The notes below the pieces were generated by a model that saw nothing but the letters and a program-made list of their open reading frames with translations, made no database searches and was not told the DNA's origin. A DNA stretch of 64,000 bases from Rhizodiscina lignyota (taxonomy: Eukaryota), in NCBI GenBank assembly GCA_010015805.1, contig ML978125.1, positions 2,294,001-2,358,000 of the forward strand, in the 5' to 3' direction. Positions 28,300 through 41,144 of this stretch are shown here, piece by piece. Position 1 is the stretch's first letter. Every line of letters starts with the position of its first letter. The position numbers and the translations under genes were made by a program.

Positions 28300-29816
28300 T
28301 TACCTGGTGCCATTCGAGTGCAAACTTGCAATGAGTCTCGGCAAAACCGAATCAGTGAACGCCCAGACATTTCCTGTGTAGTCCTCAGACCAAAGACCGC
28401 CCGTATACCACGTCGAGTGCTGACCTTGCAGAGCATAAACGTCTTGCACGATTCCGGCTCGAAGCTCTGATGCAGGTTGGCGCCAGAGGATCGAGTTGTG
28501 GTCCTGAAACGCGACAAAGTCGATAGTAGCATTTGTGGAGTTCGATGCGAACGTGCCGCTGATTGTGAGATTTTGGACAGCTGTCGTGATTATTCTCTTT
28601 GCATCCGCGTGGCTGAGGGAGTAATTGGCTGCGAAGAGGATTTCAAATAAATGCTCCTCTGGCGGTATTTTTGGTGCGGTCGTGATACTGAGCGTCCACG
28701 GCCAGTCGCGGATGCCGAGATAGTTGTCTAGCGTCGCATCAGGGGCATAGAAGTAAACAGAGTATCCGGCAGGTATAGCTGGGATCCGAGCTACGGCTGC
28801 AAAGCTCCAAGTGCCGGTAAAGGTGCTGAGCGCAGCAGTTTCGTTTCCAGTCAGTCCAAAAGGTTCCAGGTTGCGGACACTTGGAGGCGGCGTGAAGAGC
28901 ATGCGCTTAGCCTTGATCAATTTCTTACTGGTGCTGTTCTTGCTCTGGATAACGAGCTTGACGCCGTTTGCGCTTCGTTCGCCAATAGTGACTCGGCTTT
29001 GCAAGATCACGTCGTCTCGCAAGAGGTTGTATGCGCGGTCGTACAAGACGCTGTTGCTCAGATTTGCGGGCACGAATAAGGAACTGTTCAGAAACTCCTG
29101 CGTGACAGGTATTCCAAATGCGAACAAAACATACAAGGTCAGCACCTTCTCGATGCCGCCAATGCCTACATTAGAGACAACTGTAAAGATGGGTGCAGCG
29201 GCCTCAATGCCATGGCGCTGTGCGAACTCGCCGAATGGTAGCAATAATTCAGATGGAATGTTGGATCCAGCGGGGAAATTCCACAAACCAGGAAGCGTAA
29301 TGTTGGCGTATTTCTCTGTCAAGTTGAGCCATGTGGCGATTGCACCGATCTGAGCTTCTAATGAAGGCGCAGTGTACGATGTCAGGTTACTGCCACTAGT
29401 CGTGCTGACATAAACTGACGTCTGCGGTGACTGTGTGTAGGGCGTGATTGGAACATGGAAGCGGGTGAAGAAAGCGGCAGTGTCTCCGTAGCGGAGATAT
29501 GCTTCGACACCATAATCGATTGAGATATTGGAGATTGGGTCGACATAGGTGTTGACGTGACCACCCTTGCGATTGGTTAGAACATAGCAGAGCAAGAATG
29601 GGTTATACGCACCAGACGATCTTTCTCCTCTATAACGACGATATTGGTATTCAAATCCTCGCGCAATCGGACTGCAGCATAAGTGCCTGATGCCCCACCG
29701 CCAATGATGGCGACATCTTTGGTGATGATGTCTTCAGGAGCGAACTCTGCCTCATTGATTGATGCGATCGTACTGGTGACCGTGGCAGCGAGCGTTAGAA
29801 GGCATATCAAAACCAT
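28300..29816 (-). CDS. Secreted flavin-containing amine-oxidase-superfamily oxidoreductase, 2 exons
   Basis: Signal peptide, DVAIIGGGASGTYAAVRL...VVIEEKDRL|GGHVNTY, and C-terminal LQGQHSTWYTG; many N-glycosylation sequons. Confidence 0.88.
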
Positions 29817-31882
29817 CTTTGAATCGATGAAATTAAAGACTGAACGAAAAGACAAGGCCCATACTCTACATTCAACCTCGTCCCTTAACTATCGCGATCG
29901 AGGTATCCTTGTTGTGTCCCTGCATCTTTTCCGTGGAGGAGCTGCAGAGCACTTTAGGATCTGCATGGCAAAGGATCGTAAAATGTAACCGCCGTATTAA
30001 TGCCTGCACAACTTCCTGAATCGCTGAATTGATGATGTAATCAAGCATAATTGCAATATTTCCCGACGCAACAACGGCTCGGAGGTTATCTCTAATTACG
30101 GAGTCCGGCCGCAGAGGGTTGAAATCGAAAATATGAACCTAAGAGTTGTCGCCAGCATTTCTTCAACATCTCGAGGATCTGCTCGAAGTGGATTGCAAAT
30201 TCAGATTCAGCTACAACTTGAGGCTTGAGCTTCATCGGATTCCAGTGTCCAAAACGTTTGTGCAGATCGGAAAGACTCTTTCAGCTTGGTCAGGCTCCAT
30301 TACTGTGCTCTTGCATGGTTGAAGGACCACCCTGCCCAAAAGAGTGAAACCCAGTTTCTTGCCTCGGCCGGTGCCAAAAATGCATGTTCTCGGTTTCATA
30401 GTGGCTACAAAAATTGGAGAGCGTATTTCTGAATCATTTGGTTTGGATTTTTGACCCAAGAGAGCTCCATTGCTTGGTCCAGGTTAGTGCCGTAGATCAA
30501 GAAGAACACCTCCAATACGCCTTTGGATGTTGATCGTACCACCTTTCGGTATTATAGCGTTGAATGCTGCGCTGCGATCGCGGAAGCGGTGCAGCCCTTT
30601 AAGGTCCCTGGAGAAGAGTAGATGAGCGGATTTTTTGAAGATAGAGGGGCCAGAATCTGAGCGTGAACGCCTCGTAGATAGGCTCTGCTATCGTGTCAGC
30701 GTCTGGAACTGCAGTCCCCTAGTTATACCTGAAGACATCATATTCCTGCAAGGTTTTGGATCATGTTTAATCCAAAAGAGTCCTGGATGACATGTACAAT
30801 TGCGCTTTATAACTTTTCAGCGATATCTCTGTCGGAGCACGAATGATCAATGTGAGTTGATTAGGGAAGGAAGCTCTCAAGGAGAAGTGCTCACTTATAC
30901 ACAAGAGAGCGCTAAGGCGCACTGATCACCCCACAGCGCCCCTGACGGCCTCCCAACTTGACCATGAGAAGAAGTCTTGATTTACGGGGTCATGAATCTG
31001 TCAGGTACTCTACAGCTATACCTAAAAGGGATAGACCATGCCAGATATGGACGTAGTGGTGGTGGTCTATCTTGCCCCTTACCCGAAGGTTCGTTCCTAT
31101 GCCCTCTTTCGTTTCATGTAGCCTTTGCTTCTATGATTTCCTGTCATGCTTTCCAAGTTCCAACTGCTTCTCTGCTCGATAAGGGTATCTTGGTAAATGC
31201 ATGGGAGTGACTCCAACCAACCAGCATATGTATATCATCTCATATTTCCAAATTAGGTAAAAAGTGCGCGCTAAGTGCGAGCGCTACGTGTTACCGAATT
31301 CAGACGAGGCGCGGCTCCACATCATCCTTCCGCAGCACTAGGTTGTACCTTTGTGACGCGAACAAGCTCTAACATCATTGGACAGTATGCGTGGTACTGC
31401 TATACAGCCTCTGCTATTCACTCTGAATTGAGGCTCTCAGAGAGGCGAATCGGAGGGTTCAACATGCCGTGCAATAATAAGCAGACGCAAGCAACTCTGC
31501 TTGCTACAGGCTTCAAACAGGAAAAATCCACCGCTCATATAACCGGGCACCTGCACGATCTTCCATCTTATGAACTATACGAAGTGGCTGGTGACCGAGC
31601 TTCAGGCAAAGCTCGACGATGGCCGAGGGGCGGATGCGCTCAATTCAATCCTCCGTCAGCACCGAGACAATATGCGAAGGTCGGCTTACAGCCTCAAGAA
31701 TTAACCCGATGACTAGAATGCGAATTCAGGGCATGGTTTTGCAGCCATTAAGCGGTTCCGCGCCACCGCGTCACCAGATGGCTTCGTCTTCTAGTATTTA
31801 AGGGTACTGTAGTTGCAAACGGATATCTTTCATCAGTATCGATTTTCTCCTAATTCATCCTATAGACCATCGCTTCAGCAGG

Positions 31883-33480
31883 ATGTTCTTCTACAGTCTT
31901 ACAACAATAGCCACAGCAGCACTTCTCTTACCCTCTGTCTCTCTTGCACATCAATGCAGTAAATACTCTCTCCCCAGCCAAGACGAAATTCGAGCTGCGG
32001 AAAAGGTACCCACCGGAAATCCAGCTAAATGCCTTTCGGGCACCAAGTTCTTTCCTCAGCGAGTCGATCACTCCAGCAGCGATACATCTCCGAATTCAAC
32101 CTTTCTTCAGCAGTATGAAATCCACGACCAACACTTCACGCCGGGAGGGCCAATCATCTATTGGCAGAATCCGGAGCAAACATATGGTTGTCTCAACAAT
32201 ACATCAGGGCCAGCTTGGGCAGACGAGCTCGGCGGAATGGCCATCTCCCTAGAACAACGATATTATGGACTCAGCACGCCTCCTGGCCTGAACTACACGG
32301 AAAATACAAACTGGACAAACGCCGATATGAAGTACCTGACATTGGAGAACTCGTTGTTAGATGCTGTAACCTTCGTGGAATGGATCAGATGCAACTACCC
32401 AGGTGCCAAGGATAGTAAGGTTATTGTTTTCGGAGGTAAGTATGATTGTTTTTAGGCCAAGCAAAGTATCGCATTACACATTGAATCTAACAAGCTCATA
32501 GGCTCATATCCAGGATTCCTCACTATAAACTTCAGGGTCAAGTACCCAGATGTCTTCTACGGTGGTCTAGCTTCGAGCTCGGTCACACGCGGCCTTGATG
32601 TCAATATATTTTCGAAATACACATTCGCATGGGGAAACTGGGTGGGCTGGTCCATCGTCCGACACGTGAATGGTGGGCTAATGTGATACAGGCAAGCCAA
32701 GTAACAAGCGAGATCTCCGCGCTGGCAGCATCGAGGATAAAGCAAGCATTCGTCGACATCCGCGAAATGGTTAAAACTGGTAACGTCTCTGGACTTCAGG
32801 AAGCGCTTCACCTCTGCACCCCTGTCAAGTCTGCCGAACAAGCCTCCATAATCCCATTTGGGCTGTTCGGCCTGTTCACTGAGAACATCCAAAATAACCG
32901 GCCTTCATTCGGCAGTCCCGGCTCCCTAACAATTGAGACTGCGCTCAATTCAAGCGACTCTCTCGAAATTCTCGGCACAATAACCAAGGCCTTCATCTTA
33001 TGGAACGGCTACCCCTCTAACTGCTTTCCATACGAAGACCAGCCGCGCACTCTGTTTAGTTGGATCCAGTGCACGTACCTTCCGTACAGCTCACCATACT
33101 CCACGGAAGACTCTATCTTCGGCGCCTTTCTACCCGATTATTCGCACCCACTCAGTCTTGATCCGACATGTCTGTCGGGATGGAATATGACGTCTAACCC
33201 AGGTGGCCCAGACTATCAACGTCGCATACGCGTCGATCAGGAGACCATTGACACTACCGAGCGCCTCATTCTCAGCGAGAACACGTGGGACCCTGTCATG
33301 TCGATAGGACCAGACAACATTTTCCCGCCGTTTGGGACAAATGGCAGCCGGATGTATTTCATTTCGTACACGTCGCATATTGAAGACATCTTGGTCGACA
33401 TGCCCACAGACGGAGTGTGGCTGAGGAATGCAAGGAAGTTTTACCTGGAGACATTCAAGGAATGGTTGGGCAGAGTCTAA
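31883..33480 (+). CDS. Secreted serine peptidase, S28 family, 3 exons
   Basis: Signal peptide, QRVDH..TFLQQY, PGGPI, LEQRYYGLS, LTLENSLLD, nucleophile FGG|SYPG, KYPDVFYGGLASS, WDPV, SHIEDI. Introns at ~32437-32500 and ~32641-32691. Confidence 0.85.
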
Positions 33481-33899
33481 TTCGTTGCTTGAGAGTATAT
33501 GCCTGGGAATGGACGAGTGTAAGCATTTGAGTGATGATTAGAGTAATGCTGTCGAGTTAAGTAGTAATGTGCAAAGAACGTTCTGTTTGACTGGAATATC
33601 ATTTGTTCATAAGGTCGTCGAAGACAAAGATTTGGCCAGGTAAGGGCCCTCAGAGAAGATGCTTTCATTTCTTGTCTTTTGTTAATTCAGATAAGTAGAA
33701 AAATGGACCGCATGGCTATGAGAGAAAGAGTAGTTCCGCAGCAGTTTGTTTCATGAGCAAGTAAGTGTTGCAGAGTCAAGTTAACCCCCAAGATCCGATC
33801 GCCACTTCAGAAGTTCAGAGCCACCGTTACATCGCCGCGCTTATCACCGCTTTTGAATCACCTGCCAGAGGCACATCATTACAGTGGACAGTCTCAGCC

Positions 33900-34810
33900 T
33901 CAGTGCACAGGACGGCCCGACAGCGCGATCAAGGCCTGGAATCTGTCAGCGGCATATCTGTCTCTTCGCAAGGAGCAGTCGTTACGCACGTCGCAGATGG
34001 CCTGACTGGCATGGCCACAGACCTTTGTGTAGATGAGATTTGTTAGGAAGCTGGCTATTTCGCTCGGATTGATCTTCTCCACCTCGCGCTTCATCATTTC
34101 GACATTCTTATGTGCTTCTCTCTTTCTGGGGGAGACGATGACGCCGACTTCATCGCACACTGGGGGATTCTTGCTCTCCTGCGACGTATCAGCATGAATT
34201 GCACTCTCCTAACACAAACGTCTACTAACGTCGCATTCGACTGAGAATACTTGACGGGCTTCGATGTTATCTTCTTGCTCTTCCAGTTCGATTGCCGGGT
34301 CGATTTTTGGAAGGGGCGCCAGATCTCGCTGCTTGTGGATGCCAGTGATCCGAACCTTATTGCACACTGGAGGATCCTTGTTGTACTGCGCTGTATCAGA
34401 AATATATTCTATCGAGGGCTAGCCGTGAGTAACAGGCACTTACGTCGCAGATAATAGCAACATCATTTCGCTCCGCAAGCTTGACGGACGGAGTGATATG
34501 ATCACGCTTTTCCTCGGGGACGCCGATGACAGTGACCTCATCGTACCAGGGCTGTGGCGAATCGTACTGCACAGCGTCAGCAAAATACTCGTCTTCCCAA
34601 GCCGTATGCAGTCGACACTAACGTCGTAGATAATGGTGGCCAGCTGACGAGCTCCGACATTATCCTTCTTCGTTAGTACGCTCGCTGGACTAGATGCAGG
34701 AGGCGTTGGCCACATTAAGAAAGTGACGATGCTGAAGAAGGAGCGAATGTCGGCAAGACACGCAAGTTCAGAATTGCCGATAGAACAAAGTCAATGACTG
34801 CTCTGAACAT
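33900..34810 (-). CDS. Putative secreted repeat-core peptide precursor (Kex2-processed repeat protein-like); multi-exon, 5' end possibly damaged
   Basis: Phase-0 introns at 34567-34622, 34386-34443, 34179-34229 and 33936-33989 each follow a (C/Y)D codon pair. Spliced cores are IIYD|YDSPQPWYDEVTVIG, IICD|YNKDPPVCNKVRITG and VECD|ESKNPPVCDEVGVIV, flanked by GAR/AER/EAR and KR/QR. A hydrophobic leader starts at ATG 34810. Confidence 0.7.
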
Positions 34811-35768
34811 CCTCGGGCAGAATTAAAGTTTGAAGCTCGTTAAGCTTTCTCAACAGCGCTTAACGATGCCTATTGTCAATGTAGTTGTCTTCCACGGACA
34901 TAAGGATAAGGAGAGGCACGTTGAGATATGGTATGGGAATGTCAATCAGTGAGTATAAGACCAACATGCTCAACTGGATCCCCACGCTTCGTCAGACATG
35001 TAAACTTATTCATTTGGTTCATTTCACGTGTATTTATCGCTTTTGAGGGAGTAAGAGGACTGGCTTTTCGCACTGGTTGAACAAATACCATGGCACATTG
35101 GCTTCTTCTTCTACATCCTGCGCTTCAAAGTGCCGAGCAACTCTCGTGGGGACACGGAGAGTTTGCTAAATTTGAACTCTGGCGAGTGAGCGAGTATTGC
35201 GCGTGATGGCCTCAGGAGCCGTTAAAGGCGTTGAAGGGTGATTGGGAAAGCTCGGCTTCCCCAGCCGCAATCAGGAACCGGCATCTAGCTGGCGCGCTAA
35301 ACAGGGGCTTGATGGCTGGTACTGTACTAATCGGAGTATTCCGTCTGGGCGCCGCCCGCAAACCATCTGGTGCTCCGTCGTCACCACGAGCTGCTCCGCT
35401 GCACTCTTCCTCCTTCCTACTTGCTACTGACTCCCTTTCCCCCTTCACATCTTGTGTCATCTTGTGCGCATCTGGCTCAGCTCGAGAGCCACTTACAGCC
35501 ATAGCAGTAGGGACACTTTCGACAAGAGTTCGTTTTGTCGGCGCTGAACTGGTCGATCCTCCCTGCGCGTCGTAACTTTTCGCGACGCTCGGGTAGTGGA
35601 CCGCGCAACGACAGCACATAAAGCACCAAGAGCTTCTCAAGACCCATTAGCCTCTCATCGAGAGACTGTGATGTCCTCCTCGAGCTGACGCAAGGCATTC
35701 ACGACACCTCGCGGCCTTCGAACCCTTCAGCTGAAGCTTCAGTTGCTGATCGCAACGCCTCCGTCACC

Positions 35769-38700
35769 ATGAACCCTCTACATCGGGACCTGATGTATCC
35801 TGAACCTCGAAGGGCGCCGGAGAGCCCTTCAGACCCCCAGTCTCAGCCCTCGAGACCTTTGGGAGCTTTCGGGTATGTCTGTCCAGCGTTAGACCTCTGC
35901 AGCGGTTTAATGGCTCCTTGCGACGATTCCCTTGACTGATCACTTCACTTTACTCACAGAAACCCTTCCACACCACAACAGCAGTCTTCAGCACAGACTA
36001 GTCCACCAGTGCTACCACCGCCAGGTTTGTACCCGTATTTTGCCGCATGAGCTGGGCCCGTTTGCTGACAGCTCTGAATTTGCAGGATCCTTCCTCCAAG
36101 GACAAACATCAAGCTCAAGCCTTCCTCACATTGCGGGCCTGACTCAAGCTTCTCAGGCCTCCCCCCAACAAGCTTCCCAAGCTCTTCCAAGCATGCAAAC
36201 TACGCCGTCTGAGGTAGTGTCGAACTATGCGCCACAAGCCGCTCTGAGCCATGGCTTATCATCGCTCCAGAGCACCTCACAGCGCCATCCTCTCCAAGGC
36301 GACGAATCGGACCGTAACCAAACATTGATTGACCAGAAGGATAATGAACCGCAGCAGTCGGGAGACATTCACACACGAGACACAGACCAGCAGGAGAGGG
36401 AGATATCAGAGCGTCAGCACCTGGAATCGTCGCATGCACAAGCGCAACCACAACCTCATGAGAACCATGCTGGCTCTGTGCCGCTTCATCAGCCTGTTGC
36501 TGTTGCGCCTGTTCGCTCGATCCATGGTCCGAACGGTATTCTGGGAGGTGCATCTGCACCGGTCAACGGCCCGATGTCGCTGAACGCACAACTTGGAGCT
36601 CCTACTGGACCGGCAAATGTCTTCGGTGGTGGCCCATCTGCTCAGAACGAGCCACCGCCTCGTGCACAGCCAGCACAAGCGACTCCTCAAACTCTTCCTG
36701 CCGCATCCTTCGCGTCGTCGACGGCTGCTACCGTGCAGCAGTCTCAGGCCGCCATGGTTGGTCAGGGACAGCAACCGATTTTAAACGTATGGATCCCTAA
36801 TCACGAAGCAAAGCATATTCATGCCGTGAGCATTGAACGCTGACCATACTAGGATGCATTGAGCTACCTCGACCAAGTTAAGGTCCAATTTGCTGAACGA
36901 CCTGATGTGTACAACAAGTTTCTTGACATCATGAAAGACTTTAAGAGTGGCGCGTAAGTGTAGTGTTGTCTCTGCGTTCATGGACATACTAACTTTACTA
37001 GCATTGACACACCAGGAGTCATTGATCGAGTCTCGAACCTGTTTGCAGGAAATCCGAACCTAATCCAAGGTTTCAACACCTTCCTTCCTCCCGGCTACAA
37101 GATTGAGTGTGGAACGACAGACAATCCAAATGCCATTCGTGTGACTACTCCTATGGGCACTATAACCTCACAACTGCCCACTCGCCCGCAATCAAATCCT
37201 CGTCAAGTTGCGTTGGGCGCAAACGGTATGGCATCTGATGACAGGGCATATTATGAGGGCGGGTCGAGGAACACAAGCGGCGCTTGGCAATCCCAGGCAG
37301 CTCAAGGCGCGCAAGATTCGGCGTATGGAGCAGACAGGCGTGGTGCTTCCGGAGCCGGCTATGCTGGTAGTATTGCACAAAACACTTCCGCTCCATTGTC
37401 TCCGGAAGTTCAGCGTGCACAACAAATCGCTAATCAGGACGCGGCTATGATTCATCAGCAAGAGCAGCGAGGTGTTTCACAGCTGCAGAATGCTGCTTCA
37501 GTAGCAGGGTCGGGACAAGGTGTGTCTTCTATACCAGGTGTTTCTTTAACATCATTCTCCGAACAAGCAGTTAATGGCTTGGGAGGCATCCTACCGCAAG
37601 GAATGCAGGCTGGCGCGCTTGAAAAGCGAGGTCCTGTCGAATTCAATCACGCGATCAGTTATGTCAATAAGATCAAGGTGAGTTGTTGTGTGTTCTGTGA
37701 AGATATGACACGCTAACGTGGCTGCCATATTTTAGAACCGCTTCTCGGCACAACCTGACATCTATAAACAATTCCTGGAAATCTTGCAAACTTACCAGCG
37801 CGAGTCAAAACCGATCCAAGAAGTCTATGGTCAAGTCACACAGCTCTTTTCTTCGGCTCCAGATCTTTTGGAAGACTTCAAGCAATTCCTTCCTGAATCC
37901 GCAGCACACGCTAAGGCTATGGCTGCCAGTCGAGGTGAAGAAGCAATGCTGAGCAATATGCGCAATGATCCTGCATACGTTGCGGCCATGCCTCAACAGC
38001 TTCACACTCCTCGACAGGATCAGACGAGGATGCCACCGCTGGGGAATTTTGCGCCTACGCCAAACACTGGTAGAGAGACAAAGCGCAAGCGACAAGATAG
38101 GCAGGCACCAGGCCCCAGCTCGGCGGCAACAGCAATGCCTGTTGGGCCGGATGCTAGTGCGCAGGCCATGAGAGCTGGATACCCCGGAGGACATGTTGCA
38201 AAGGTCAGTAAAATTCTCAGTTCGTATCGAAATTAATGGTTCTATGGGCGTTTGAATTCATCCGAGCCTGAAACAACGATGAGAGTCTTGGCAAAGCTGC
38301 CTGGATGACGTCTCTCTCATTGTGAATGTCACGCCTCTATTATCTATTGTTTCTGGTTTTTCTTTCTTTCTGGAAGCATGTTACTGACATGTATTCCAAA
38401 CAGCGTCAGAAGCAGCCCCATGGCGTGAAGCCAGTCACCGCAACAGATCTTCCTCCTGTCTCTCCAACTTTGGTCCCTCCACAGCCCTCGCCGCTGCCAC
38501 CGAGTACCTCGAAAATGCCTACTCCGGACGAGCTTCAATTCTTCGAACGCGCCAAGAAGTTCATTTCGAATAAGAGCGGAACAAATGAGTTCTTGAAACT
38601 CTGTCAACTTTTCTCTGAGCAGCTCATCGACAAGTCCTCGCTTATGCGACGTGCGCACAACTACTTTGGTTCCAACCCAGAGTTGATGCAGTTTTTCAAG

Positions 38701-41144
38701 AAATTCATGGAGTACAAAGACGAGGATGAAGAGATTGAGAATAAGCCTCGTGCACGTGGTTCGCCTGGTCGTGTGGCTCTCATGAGCTGCCGATCCTATG
38801 GGCCGAGCTACCGACTACTCCCAAAGCGCGAGACTCAAGCTGTTTGCAGCGGTCGAGATGAGCTCTGTCGCTCTGTGCTCAATGACGAATGGGCTTCTCA
38901 TCCCACTTGGGCATCAGAAGACTCCGGATTTGTGGCACATCGCAAGAACATCCACGAGGAAGGTCTCCACCGCATCGAAGAGGAGCGTCATGACTACGAC
39001 TTTAACATCGAGGCGTGCAGCCGAACTGTACAGCTGCTTGAACCGATCGCTCAGCAGATGCTGATCGCTAGCCCAGAAGATCGGGCGGGTATGCAGCTTC
39101 CACCCGGCCTTGGCGGACAGAGCGAGACCATCTACAAGCGAGTCATCATGAAGATTTATGGCCGTGACCGTGGAAAGATTGTCATTGAGGAGATGTTCCG
39201 CCAGCCCTACAATGTCATCCCGACCGTCCTTAACCGCATCAAGCAGCGCCTCGAGGAGTGGAAGGGCGCCCAGCGAGAATGGGAGAAGGTCTGGCGCGAA
39301 CAAACGCAGAAGATATTCTGGCGCAGTCTTGACCACCAAAGCATCGGTGCGAAAATGGCAGACAAGCGACAGTTCCAAACCAAAACTCTCCAGAATGAGA
39401 TTCAAGTCAAGTTCCAAGAGCAGAAAGATAGGCGCGACCGTGGTGTCGGTACGAGGAAGTTCCAGTTCTCATGGGATATTGAGGATGTCGACGTCCTTTT
39501 CGATGCTGCGAGGCTCGTTCTCGTGTTCGCGCAGATGTCCCACCAGGGAGAGACAACCACCCTTGAGGAGTTCTTGAAAGACTTTGTCAGCACCTTTTTC
39601 GGCATCGATAGAGCCAAGATTGAGCAGTCGCTCGAGATGGCATGGCATGTCCCCTCCTCGTCCGACGAGATGGATATAGCAACGCCGGGTACGAATGAAT
39701 TCGCCTCACGTACGAGGATAAACGGACGCGGTGCGAACCTCCATCGCGCAGTCCTTGAGCGTGGTCGTGCTGGCAGAACTCTACAGCCAGACCTAGATGT
39801 CAGCGTTGCCTCCGGAAGCCGAGCGACTACACCTGGAGTTGCTTCTGCAGCGGAGGATGATGGAGCCGCCCCGATGGAAGGTGTTGAAGATATGCAGCCG
39901 ACTGAGCCTCATATGGAAAAGTGGATGGAATATCCCGCGGACGGCAACTTCGCCAATGGCCAACAGATCGCTATCAACGAGCCCTTCACGCGCACGCATT
40001 ACCACATGTTCTGCAACTTGCCGATTTACTGCTTTGTCCGCATGTTCCTCATTCTCTACGAGCGCCTCTACAACCTCAAGAAGGTCGAGGCGGATGTTCA
40101 CGACTTGATCAGGAAGGCCATGGCGCCGAAACCAGCGCGTGACCTCGGTATGATCGACAAGTACCCAAGCGACTTCTTCACCGACGTAAGCGAGAATGCG
40201 AACTTTTACCAGCAGATGATCGGCTTGTTCGAGGAGAACCTTCGCGGCGATATAGAGGTAGGCCATATTGAGGAGACGCTGCGTCGATACTATCTTGAGA
40301 ATGGTTGGCAGCTCTACTCGTTCGATAAGCTGCTTGCCTCTCTTGCACGCTTTGCCTTGGCAGTCCGTGCGGGCGACTCGAAAGACAAGACATGGGACAT
40401 TTGGCTGGCGTTTAAGAAGGATCGAGCCAAGTCTGAGACGACGCATGAAGAGGAGCTCGCAGTCCGCAGGACTGTGCAGAAGTACATCAAGGAAGGAGAT
40501 ATGTATAGGATCACTCTTGCCAATCCGGTAAGCACCAAGCTCCCTCTTTCTCCTCCTCACAACATTTCTTCCTCATCACAACATTCTTTTCTCCTCACAA
40601 CAATACTGATATGCACCTTCAGCAAATTCCATCTGAGACCACCCGTGTCTATATTCGTCTCTTTCCCACCGACGAGACGACCTTTGATCTCACCGAGTAC
40701 ACCGAAGAGCGCAACTGGCGCTTCTACGTGTCTGCCTGGCTCCACGTCGAACCCACCGAGGGTATACGCGACGACAAGGTGCAGGTGCCGTTCCTGAGGC
40801 GCCAGCATCTCGGCGAAGCGCTCGCAGCCAGCGACGAAATGATCGTCAGCAACGAGTCTCTCAAGGTGCGCGTCCCGCTGGAAAACTACAAGCCGAACTT
40901 CGAACCGGACTGCTGGGAGTACATTATCAACCCGCGGGCCCTGACACAGACCAAGGAGACTGAGGAGGAGATGGAGCAGAGGAATGAGCAGGCGGCGGAG
41001 ATTGCCGAGGAGAAGATCGTCTTGAACAGCCCATGGACGAAGGACATGGCCAAGGGCGCGGTGGATGCGAAGAACCAGGAATTCAGGCACGCTCTGGACG
41101 AGGCTCTGGACATGGACGGGGGCGCCGAAGAAGTGGAGGCGTGA
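35769..41144 (+). CDS. SIN3: Sin3 transcriptional co-repressor (PAH1-3, HID, Sin3 C-terminal), multi-exon
   Basis: [19 protein letters not shown] (PAH1), [16 protein letters not shown] (PAH2), [48 protein letters not shown]...RSLDHQ. Confidence 0.97.

Follow-up and report, generated by a model that had tools for sequence, protein, structure and literature searches.

A five-exon orphan gene of Rhizodiscina lignyota that appears to have grown by duplication of an exon-plus-intron unit

Exon duplication and exon shuffling with exons of symmetrical phase are textbook concepts, and the classic exon-shuffling cases concern extracellular modules of animals, mostly of phase 1-1. A different class of repeat-containing genes is formed by the Kex2-processed repeat precursors (KEPs), among them the precursors of ustiloxin-type RiPPs and of alpha-type pheromones. 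According to the excerpted text of two KEP surveys (PMC7329392, PMC6339444), the class needs an ER signal peptide together with highly or nearly identical repeats, the repeats are separated by KR, RR or KK, and one survey asks for at least three of them; the word “intron” has no occurrence in these excerpts. Alpha-type pheromone precursors of ascomycetes are marked by a signal peptide, by STE13 dipeptides behind KR and by a short conserved core. In the same excerpt of PMC6339444 the alpha-pheromone core of non-Pleosporales Dothideomycetes is described as having two Cys residues and being of the type R-F-C-H-L-P-G-Q-G-C-S-K.

Here we analyze a five-exon gene (coding span 33900..34715) on the minus strand of the window, by which we mean the whole 64,000-nucleotide stretch of fungal DNA from Rhizodiscina lignyota that was analyzed. 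Like exon-duplication proteins, the gene has internal exons that are all of phase 0-0 and hold one repeat period each, and the intron position, donor context, branch motif and branch-acceptor spacing appear to have been copied along with the unit. Unlike in the classic cases, what is repeated here is a stretch of 41-63 aa from an orphan fungal protein, with the boundary between repeats inside a structural unit. With KEPs the product shares its small size, its fungal origin, its tandem units and a K-R or Q-R at an aligned position after each, and with some alpha-pheromones (PMC6339444, as excerpted) a Cys pair, here present in two units. It differs from KEPs, as the excerpted surveys describe them, in that each unit is split by an intron. 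We consider the locus best explained, at a probability of roughly 0.55, as an already annotated Dothideomycete gene for an intact small orphan protein that is made from the annotated start.

Exon structure, public gene model and locus

The gene had been put forward in an initial annotation as a “hidden” gene with four minus-strand introns, one after a T[G/A]C-GAC codon pair in every repeat. Its features, in the order of transcription, are the following.

34623..34715, minus strand: coding part of exon 1, 31 codons, from the ATG at 34715-34713 to a final TAC-GAC; first half of unit 1
34567..34622, minus strand: intron 1, 56 nt; donor GTTAGT at 34622, branch CTGAC at 34580, CAG acceptor
34444..34566, minus strand: exon 2, 123 nt, 41 codons, phase 0-0
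34386..34443, minus strand: intron 2, 58 nt; donor GTAAGT at 34443, branch CTGAT at 34399, CAG acceptor
34230..34385, minus strand: exon 3, 156 nt, 52 codons, phase 0-0
34179..34229, minus strand: intron 3, 51 nt; donor GTTAGT at 34229, branch CTGAT at 34192, CAG acceptor
33990..34178, minus strand: exon 4, 189 nt, 63 codons, phase 0-0
33936..33989, minus strand: intron 4, 54 nt; donor GTGCGT at 33989, branch CTGAC at 33949, CAG acceptor
33900..33935, minus strand: exon 5, 11 codons and the TGA stop (33902-33900)

All four introns were found at the places claimed for them, with the donors, CTGAC or CTGAT branches and CAG acceptors that had been named, and TACGAC or TGCGAC directly precedes each of the four donors, confirming the phase-0 position after this codon pair for 4/4 donors. 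Exons 2, 3 and 4 (B, C and D) have lengths that are all multiples of 3 and are open in the frame that splicing requires. Exon 2 opens with the second half of unit 1 and continues through a K-R site and an H-I-x-P-S segment into the first half of unit 2. Exon 3 completes unit 2 with a second half that includes P-P-V-C, goes on to a Q-R site and a K-I-x-P-A segment, and begins unit 3 with its first half. Exon 4 completes unit 3 and then has R-K-R and M-K-R sites, followed by a K-I-x-P-S segment and a predicted helical region ending in ..ICD. With the annotated acceptors the distance from the branch A to the acceptor G is 10 nt in all four introns. In intron 2 the frame-breaking alternative CAG at 34391-34393, to which the initial annotation had drawn attention, lies 5 nt from the branch A versus 10 nt for the annotated acceptor, and the public model splices to the 58-nt form instead. 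A 47-nt form of intron 4 was rejected, its AG being 3 nt from the branch A and the resulting tail having a null-like codon score of -0.169. Intron 4 is itself in frame and stop-free, and a transcript retaining it would give the full-length protein with 18 additional residues.

The spliced CDS (597 nt) corresponds letter for letter to P0001 (198 aa), which carries the source name [quoted passage not shown] and the splice 34715-34623, 34566-34444, 34385-34230, 34178-33990, 33935-33900. The gene is thus not hidden, since P0001 is already in the public annotation with the same four introns, including the 58-nt intron 2 and the 54-nt intron 4, and with its start at the sole in-frame ATG (34715); the frame of exon 1 is open upstream as far as 34790 and contains no further in-frame ATG. 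When an alignment of the three internal exons was used as query against a collection of 5.8 billion proteins in a search for longer proteins, one match was obtained in 128 candidates, and this was P0001 at 100% identity. A second, independently assembled contig that covers this DNA at a word depth of 153 has 0 differences and 0 gaps across 33700-35100, which argues that the reading frames are not assembly errors or frameshift artefacts, as far as a contig that may derive from the window's own reads can tell.

The gene is flanked by a serine carboxypeptidase S28 gene on one side (31802-33480, plus strand) and by a gene for a Sin3 co-repressor on the other (about 35911-40797, plus strand), and the farther neighbours are by Pfam a carboxylesterase, a mitochondrial carrier, Tim17 and the 49-kDa NADH dehydrogenase subunit. 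The Pfam scan covered 17 ORFs, namely 14 long ORFs at 19-48 kb of the window and three ORFs of the gene itself. Two long open frames are without a Pfam match, one at 28300-29733 (minus strand, 477 aa) and one at 35911-36843 (plus strand, 310 aa), the latter probably being the low-complexity N-terminus of the Sin3 gene.

Coding signal and growth by duplication

On its minus strand the 64-kb window holds ten intron-like configurations, five of them within these 700 nt, and in 50 mononucleotide shuffles the largest count of such configurations per 700 nt was 3 (mean 1.44). Donors following TRCGAC are found in the window at this gene only (4/4), with 0 on the plus strand. The 15-mer ATCTRCGACGTDNGT has three exact matches in the window, all of them in this gene; a shuffle control for it in which two mismatches were allowed was non-discriminating, 26 of 100 shuffles reaching 3.

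From base composition, the chance of the 187 codons of exons 1 to 4 (A to D) staying open is about 1.3e-4. Codon usage was quantified as a log-odds score trained on the 14 long ORFs of the window, and the null consisted of 260 stop-free wrong-frame ORFs of at least 40 codons. Exons 1, 2, 3 and 4 scored 0.116, 0.253, 0.173 and 0.142 bits per codon, placing them in the top 1.5%, 0.4%, 0.8% and 1.2% of the null, respectively, and the joint score of 0.171 lies in the top 0.8%; exon 5 was too short for codon scoring. The median of 122 true-frame chunks lies close to the exon scores, and in each of the four exons the proposed frame outscores the other five. Conservation between the units is best or joint-best at codon position 2 in three of three pairs, by small margins. 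Judged by these properties, the gene looks like real coding sequence.

The donor-to-donor spacing is 179, 214 and 240 nt. When the internal exons are aligned, the units show 29-35% protein identity and the similarity spans the whole exon, taking in the “cores”, the [K/H]-I-x-P-[S/A] linker and the basic site, which stands at an aligned column; the linker motifs are conserved as well as the “cores”. Tandem Repeats Finder (minimum score 30) reported no tandem repeat at the DNA level, because the units are too diverged. Among the intron copies, the donor hexamer and the last 15 nt are 71% identical, as against 33% for the interiors, and such preservation of the splice signals next to decayed interiors suggests that splicing has been under selection since the duplications. 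The exon-duplicated origin proposed in the initial annotation is supported by the symmetrical exons, by the alignment across the whole exon and by the copied splice signals, and the gene is, as far as its sequence tells, one that arose by duplicating an exon-plus-intron unit.

The duplication would have been a tandem one of a unit of about 180-240 nt, made up of one phase 0-0 exon and its short intron. Each exon would then carry hydrophobic segment 2 of one unit, the K/Q-R site with the [K/H]-I-x-P-[S/A] linker and segment 1 of the next unit. Since the duplicated unit would comprise exon and intron together, an intron is expected after the identical ..[C/Y]-D codon pair in every unit, and since the repeat boundary would fall inside the structural unit, each “core” is split by an intron.

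These results also bear on the view that the gene is decaying or non-functional, either because a leader was lost by a frame change or because an unexpressed ab-initio model was laid over an open frame. This view, which we regard as unlikely, gains from the immediately preceding signal-like ORF, which is in another frame and ends on the annotated ATG, from the poor start context of that ATG, from the fact that relatives were not found and from the very low structure confidence, all described below. It has to contend with five exons that are all open (about 1.3e-4 by composition for exons A to D), with gene-like codon usage in every one of exons A to D, and with splice signals and a 10-nt branch spacing that are kept in 4/4 copies around randomised intron interiors. 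That all four copies keep their splice signals points to selection on splicing long after the duplications, which argues against decay.

Search for relatives and predicted structure

A phmmer search with P0001 against 1.84 billion representative proteins returned four proteins at E ≤ 1e-3, namely P0001 itself and P0002, P0003 and P0004. The protein matched 0 Pfam families at E ≤ 0.01, no short protein or ORF fragment shared three 5-residue words with it, and among solved structures there was no match below E 0.3, two B-box chains coming out at E 0.34 and 0.54. In the metagenome scan 64 stretches had a word match and one of them (L001) passed tblastn; it was rejected as chance, lying inside a 598-aa high-GC bacterial aminopeptidase-like ORF and sharing a sole 8-residue word. 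Homologues that conserve the cores, on whose existence the initial annotation had made its proposal partly depend, were thus found in none of the protein, short-ORF and metagenome searches, and the gene is without credible relatives in the proteins, ORF fragments, metagenome contigs and Pfam families searched. As stated in the excerpted genome paper, the family of the species was erected in 2020 and has few sequenced relatives (PMC7082219), so the orphan status may in part be a sampling effect. The excerpts of that paper make no mention of transcript support, and one of its supplements none of a transcriptome or RNA.

The remaining phmmer matches, P0002-P0004, are Ig-repeat proteins with E values of 2.5e-5 to 1.6e-4 and five to six matched stretches each, and they raise the idea that the repeat unit is distant kin of immunoglobulin-type domains. 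The best argument for it is a gapless alignment of 38 residues (P0001 residues 42-79) with at most 14/38 identities, in which P0001 resembles the strand-linker-strand region of animal CD22/Siglec-like Ig C2-type repeats in having a hydrophobic strand, a Cys, four residues and [N/D]-P-P-V, with I-[S/T]-P-S before. The match spans half a domain at most, though, and the repeats inflate its score: segment 42-79 matches near-identical copies in the targets, so that the summed score repeats one weak match, the lone alignment reaching 29 bits and a pairwise E of 1e-4. P0001 is also without a Pfam Ig match (Ig_2, Ig_3 or I-set), whereas P0002-P0004 match Ig_2 at 1e-105 to 1e-252. Furthermore, the 41-63-aa unit would correspond to the G-strand, linker and A-B part of an Ig domain only and is too short for the fold, and the targets are animal-type receptors (Ig_CD22, V-set) of non-fungal origin. 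The resemblance of residues 42-79 was consequently judged to be a chance one with a score inflated by repeats, and kinship with Ig domains appears scarcely credible.

The units consist of two hydrophobic segments around a Pro-rich loop. Of the three C-x8-C cores previously described, those of units 2 and 3 are present, while unit 1 has Tyr at both positions. The description of the cores as hairpins holds for the two hydrophobic segments and the Pro-rich loop, and for unit 2 it also agrees with strands at 67-72 and 79-84 in an AlphaFold2 model, at low confidence; it does not hold for the C-x8-C closure of unit 1. The AlphaFold2 model, made from the single sequence of P0001, has a mean pLDDT of 43, and the Atlas's own model has 0.45. 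Structure matches from the Atlas, all with TM ≤ 0.32 on that pLDDT 0.45 model, were dismissed. AlphaFold2 also predicts three helices of pLDDT around 70 (143-158, 162-176 and 183-192), of which the third spans the final splice junction. Taken together, the models lend weak support to hairpin-like units followed by a helical tail, and they suggest that the C-terminal quarter is not a “core”. The “fourth partial core” of the initial annotation comes down to the ..ICD end that the exons share, with a tail of 11 residues behind it.

Translation start, secretion and fate of the product

The annotated ATG (34715) has a T at -3, and the upstream ATGs at 34810 and 34967 have an A; because of this difference the true start may be elsewhere than at the annotated ATG. 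One upstream frame needs to be listed here.

34715..34810, minus strand: upstream hydrophobic ORF of 31 codons in another frame, starting at ATG 34810

The TAA stop of this ORF overlaps the annotated ATG by one base (TAATG), and its codon score is null-like (-0.068). The ORF may be a regulatory uORF, or it may be what is left of a lost leader or signal peptide. The best 10-residue Kyte-Doolittle window is 2.5 in this out-of-frame ORF versus 1.15 in the annotated N-terminus, and the first 40 residues of the annotated model contain no signal-peptide-like hydrophobic core by this measure. When 5' models were enumerated (90 ATG/GT..AG combinations and one direct ATG), a consensus donor (G at +5, T at +6) with a short intron was found in 0 of the 90 joins. 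The best 5' model starts at ATG 34967 and uses donor GTCCGT at 34899 and a pyrimidine-rich strong acceptor at 34732, giving a 168-nt intron and fusing a hydrophobic N-terminus in frame to exon 1, so a secretory leader may lie on an unannotated 5' exon.

Two further signals were observed in this region. A perfect branch heptamer, TACTAAC, lies within exon 1 at 34670-34676 (minus strand). AGs follow it at 5 and 8 nt, and use of the second would give a phase-0 exon start like those of the other introns; no acceptable donor was found upstream. A TATA-like GATAAATA is present at 35034-35043 (minus strand). It stands some 320 nt before the annotated ATG, within the divergent region of roughly 1.2 kb that this gene has in common with Sin3, and a start there would leave the ATGs 34999, 34967, 34901 and 34810 in the leader.

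The initial annotation had read the protein as a Kex2-processed repeat precursor, and the corresponding alternative is a secreted multi-core precursor whose units are freed as disulfide-closed hairpin peptides and whose signal peptide, encoded 5' of the annotated model, has been missed. Several features speak for such a precursor. KR follows units 1 and 3 at aligned positions, and P0001 has three KR sites (1.2 expected from composition) and one KK; Arg then Gln stands at the start of two of the three units; the paired Cys, both absent together in unit 1, would fit a disulfide. In addition, the two upstream hydrophobic ORFs have a good start context, and the ATG 34967 model would put a hydrophobic N-terminus in frame with exon 1. 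By features, the Atlas cluster closest to the protein bears the automatic name “Pheromone 1” (Ascomycota), although its value of 0.76 is below the tool's chance bar.

Against this, the annotated model is without a signal peptide, all joins from upstream ATGs need a weak donor or an atypical intron, and the upstream ORF has the codon score of non-coding sequence. There are three units only, and their 29-35% identity is far from the “highly repeated” or “nearly identical” units of KEPs in the excerpted surveys. Cutting at KR/RR in silico gives unequal pieces of 52, 92, 11 and 43 aa, with KR sites that are not in register with every unit and with units 2 and 3 staying together, Q-R alone being present between them. 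Unlike in KEPs, the linker motifs are conserved like the “cores”, and inspection of P0001 by eye revealed neither an alpha-type pheromone core nor runs of X-A/X-P (STE13) dipeptides after KR. The A-R and E-R that had been proposed as N-terminal release boundaries are single-Arg sites, which to our knowledge are not canonical Kex2 sites. No DUF3328/UstYa gene, by which ust-RiPS would be marked, and no tyrosinase or other tailoring gene was found among the 17 ORFs scanned with Pfam, a scan of neighbour ORFs of at least 150 aa that a short multi-exon gene could escape; the neighbours encode the S28 peptidase, Sin3, the carboxylesterase and mitochondrial proteins. The absence of homologues conserving the cores from the searches above also counts against a precursor. 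By each KEP feature tested on the annotated model, the Kex2-precursor reading is not supported, and a secreted precursor with a missed signal peptide appears distinctly unlikely.

An intact protein made from the annotated ATG is therefore the reading that we prefer. The product would be a single small protein without a signal peptide that is not cut into secreted peptides, built of three hairpin-like units, each with a Cys-Cys or (unit 1) Tyr-Tyr closure, and a helical tail of about 55 residues behind them. We infer the hairpin form of the units, the intracellular and uncleaved fate of the protein and the expression of the gene. What speaks against a cytosolic product is the presence of six Cys in three local pairs, both of them lost together in unit 1, since such pairing would be more in keeping with a secreted, oxidised protein.

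We think it very unlikely that the gene is the first member to be seen of a class of multi-unit peptide precursors of fungi whose cores are all split by a phase-0 intron and are added by exon-plus-intron duplication instead of by repeat expansion within an exon. If this were true, the gene would be a split-core precursor of hairpin peptides some 27 aa long, with a disulfide or Tyr-Tyr closure and cut at basic sites, and it would require an unannotated signal-peptide exon (e.g. with ATG 34967) or unconventional export. A secreted and cut product would add an intron-split, exon-duplicating architecture to the kinds of fungal peptide precursors, and genome mining for near-identical repeats with KR sites alone would miss such genes. 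On the reading preferred here, as an intact orphan protein, the locus would be a fungal gene grown by exon-plus-intron duplication, which leaves the field unchanged and has its use in teaching and in checking gene models.
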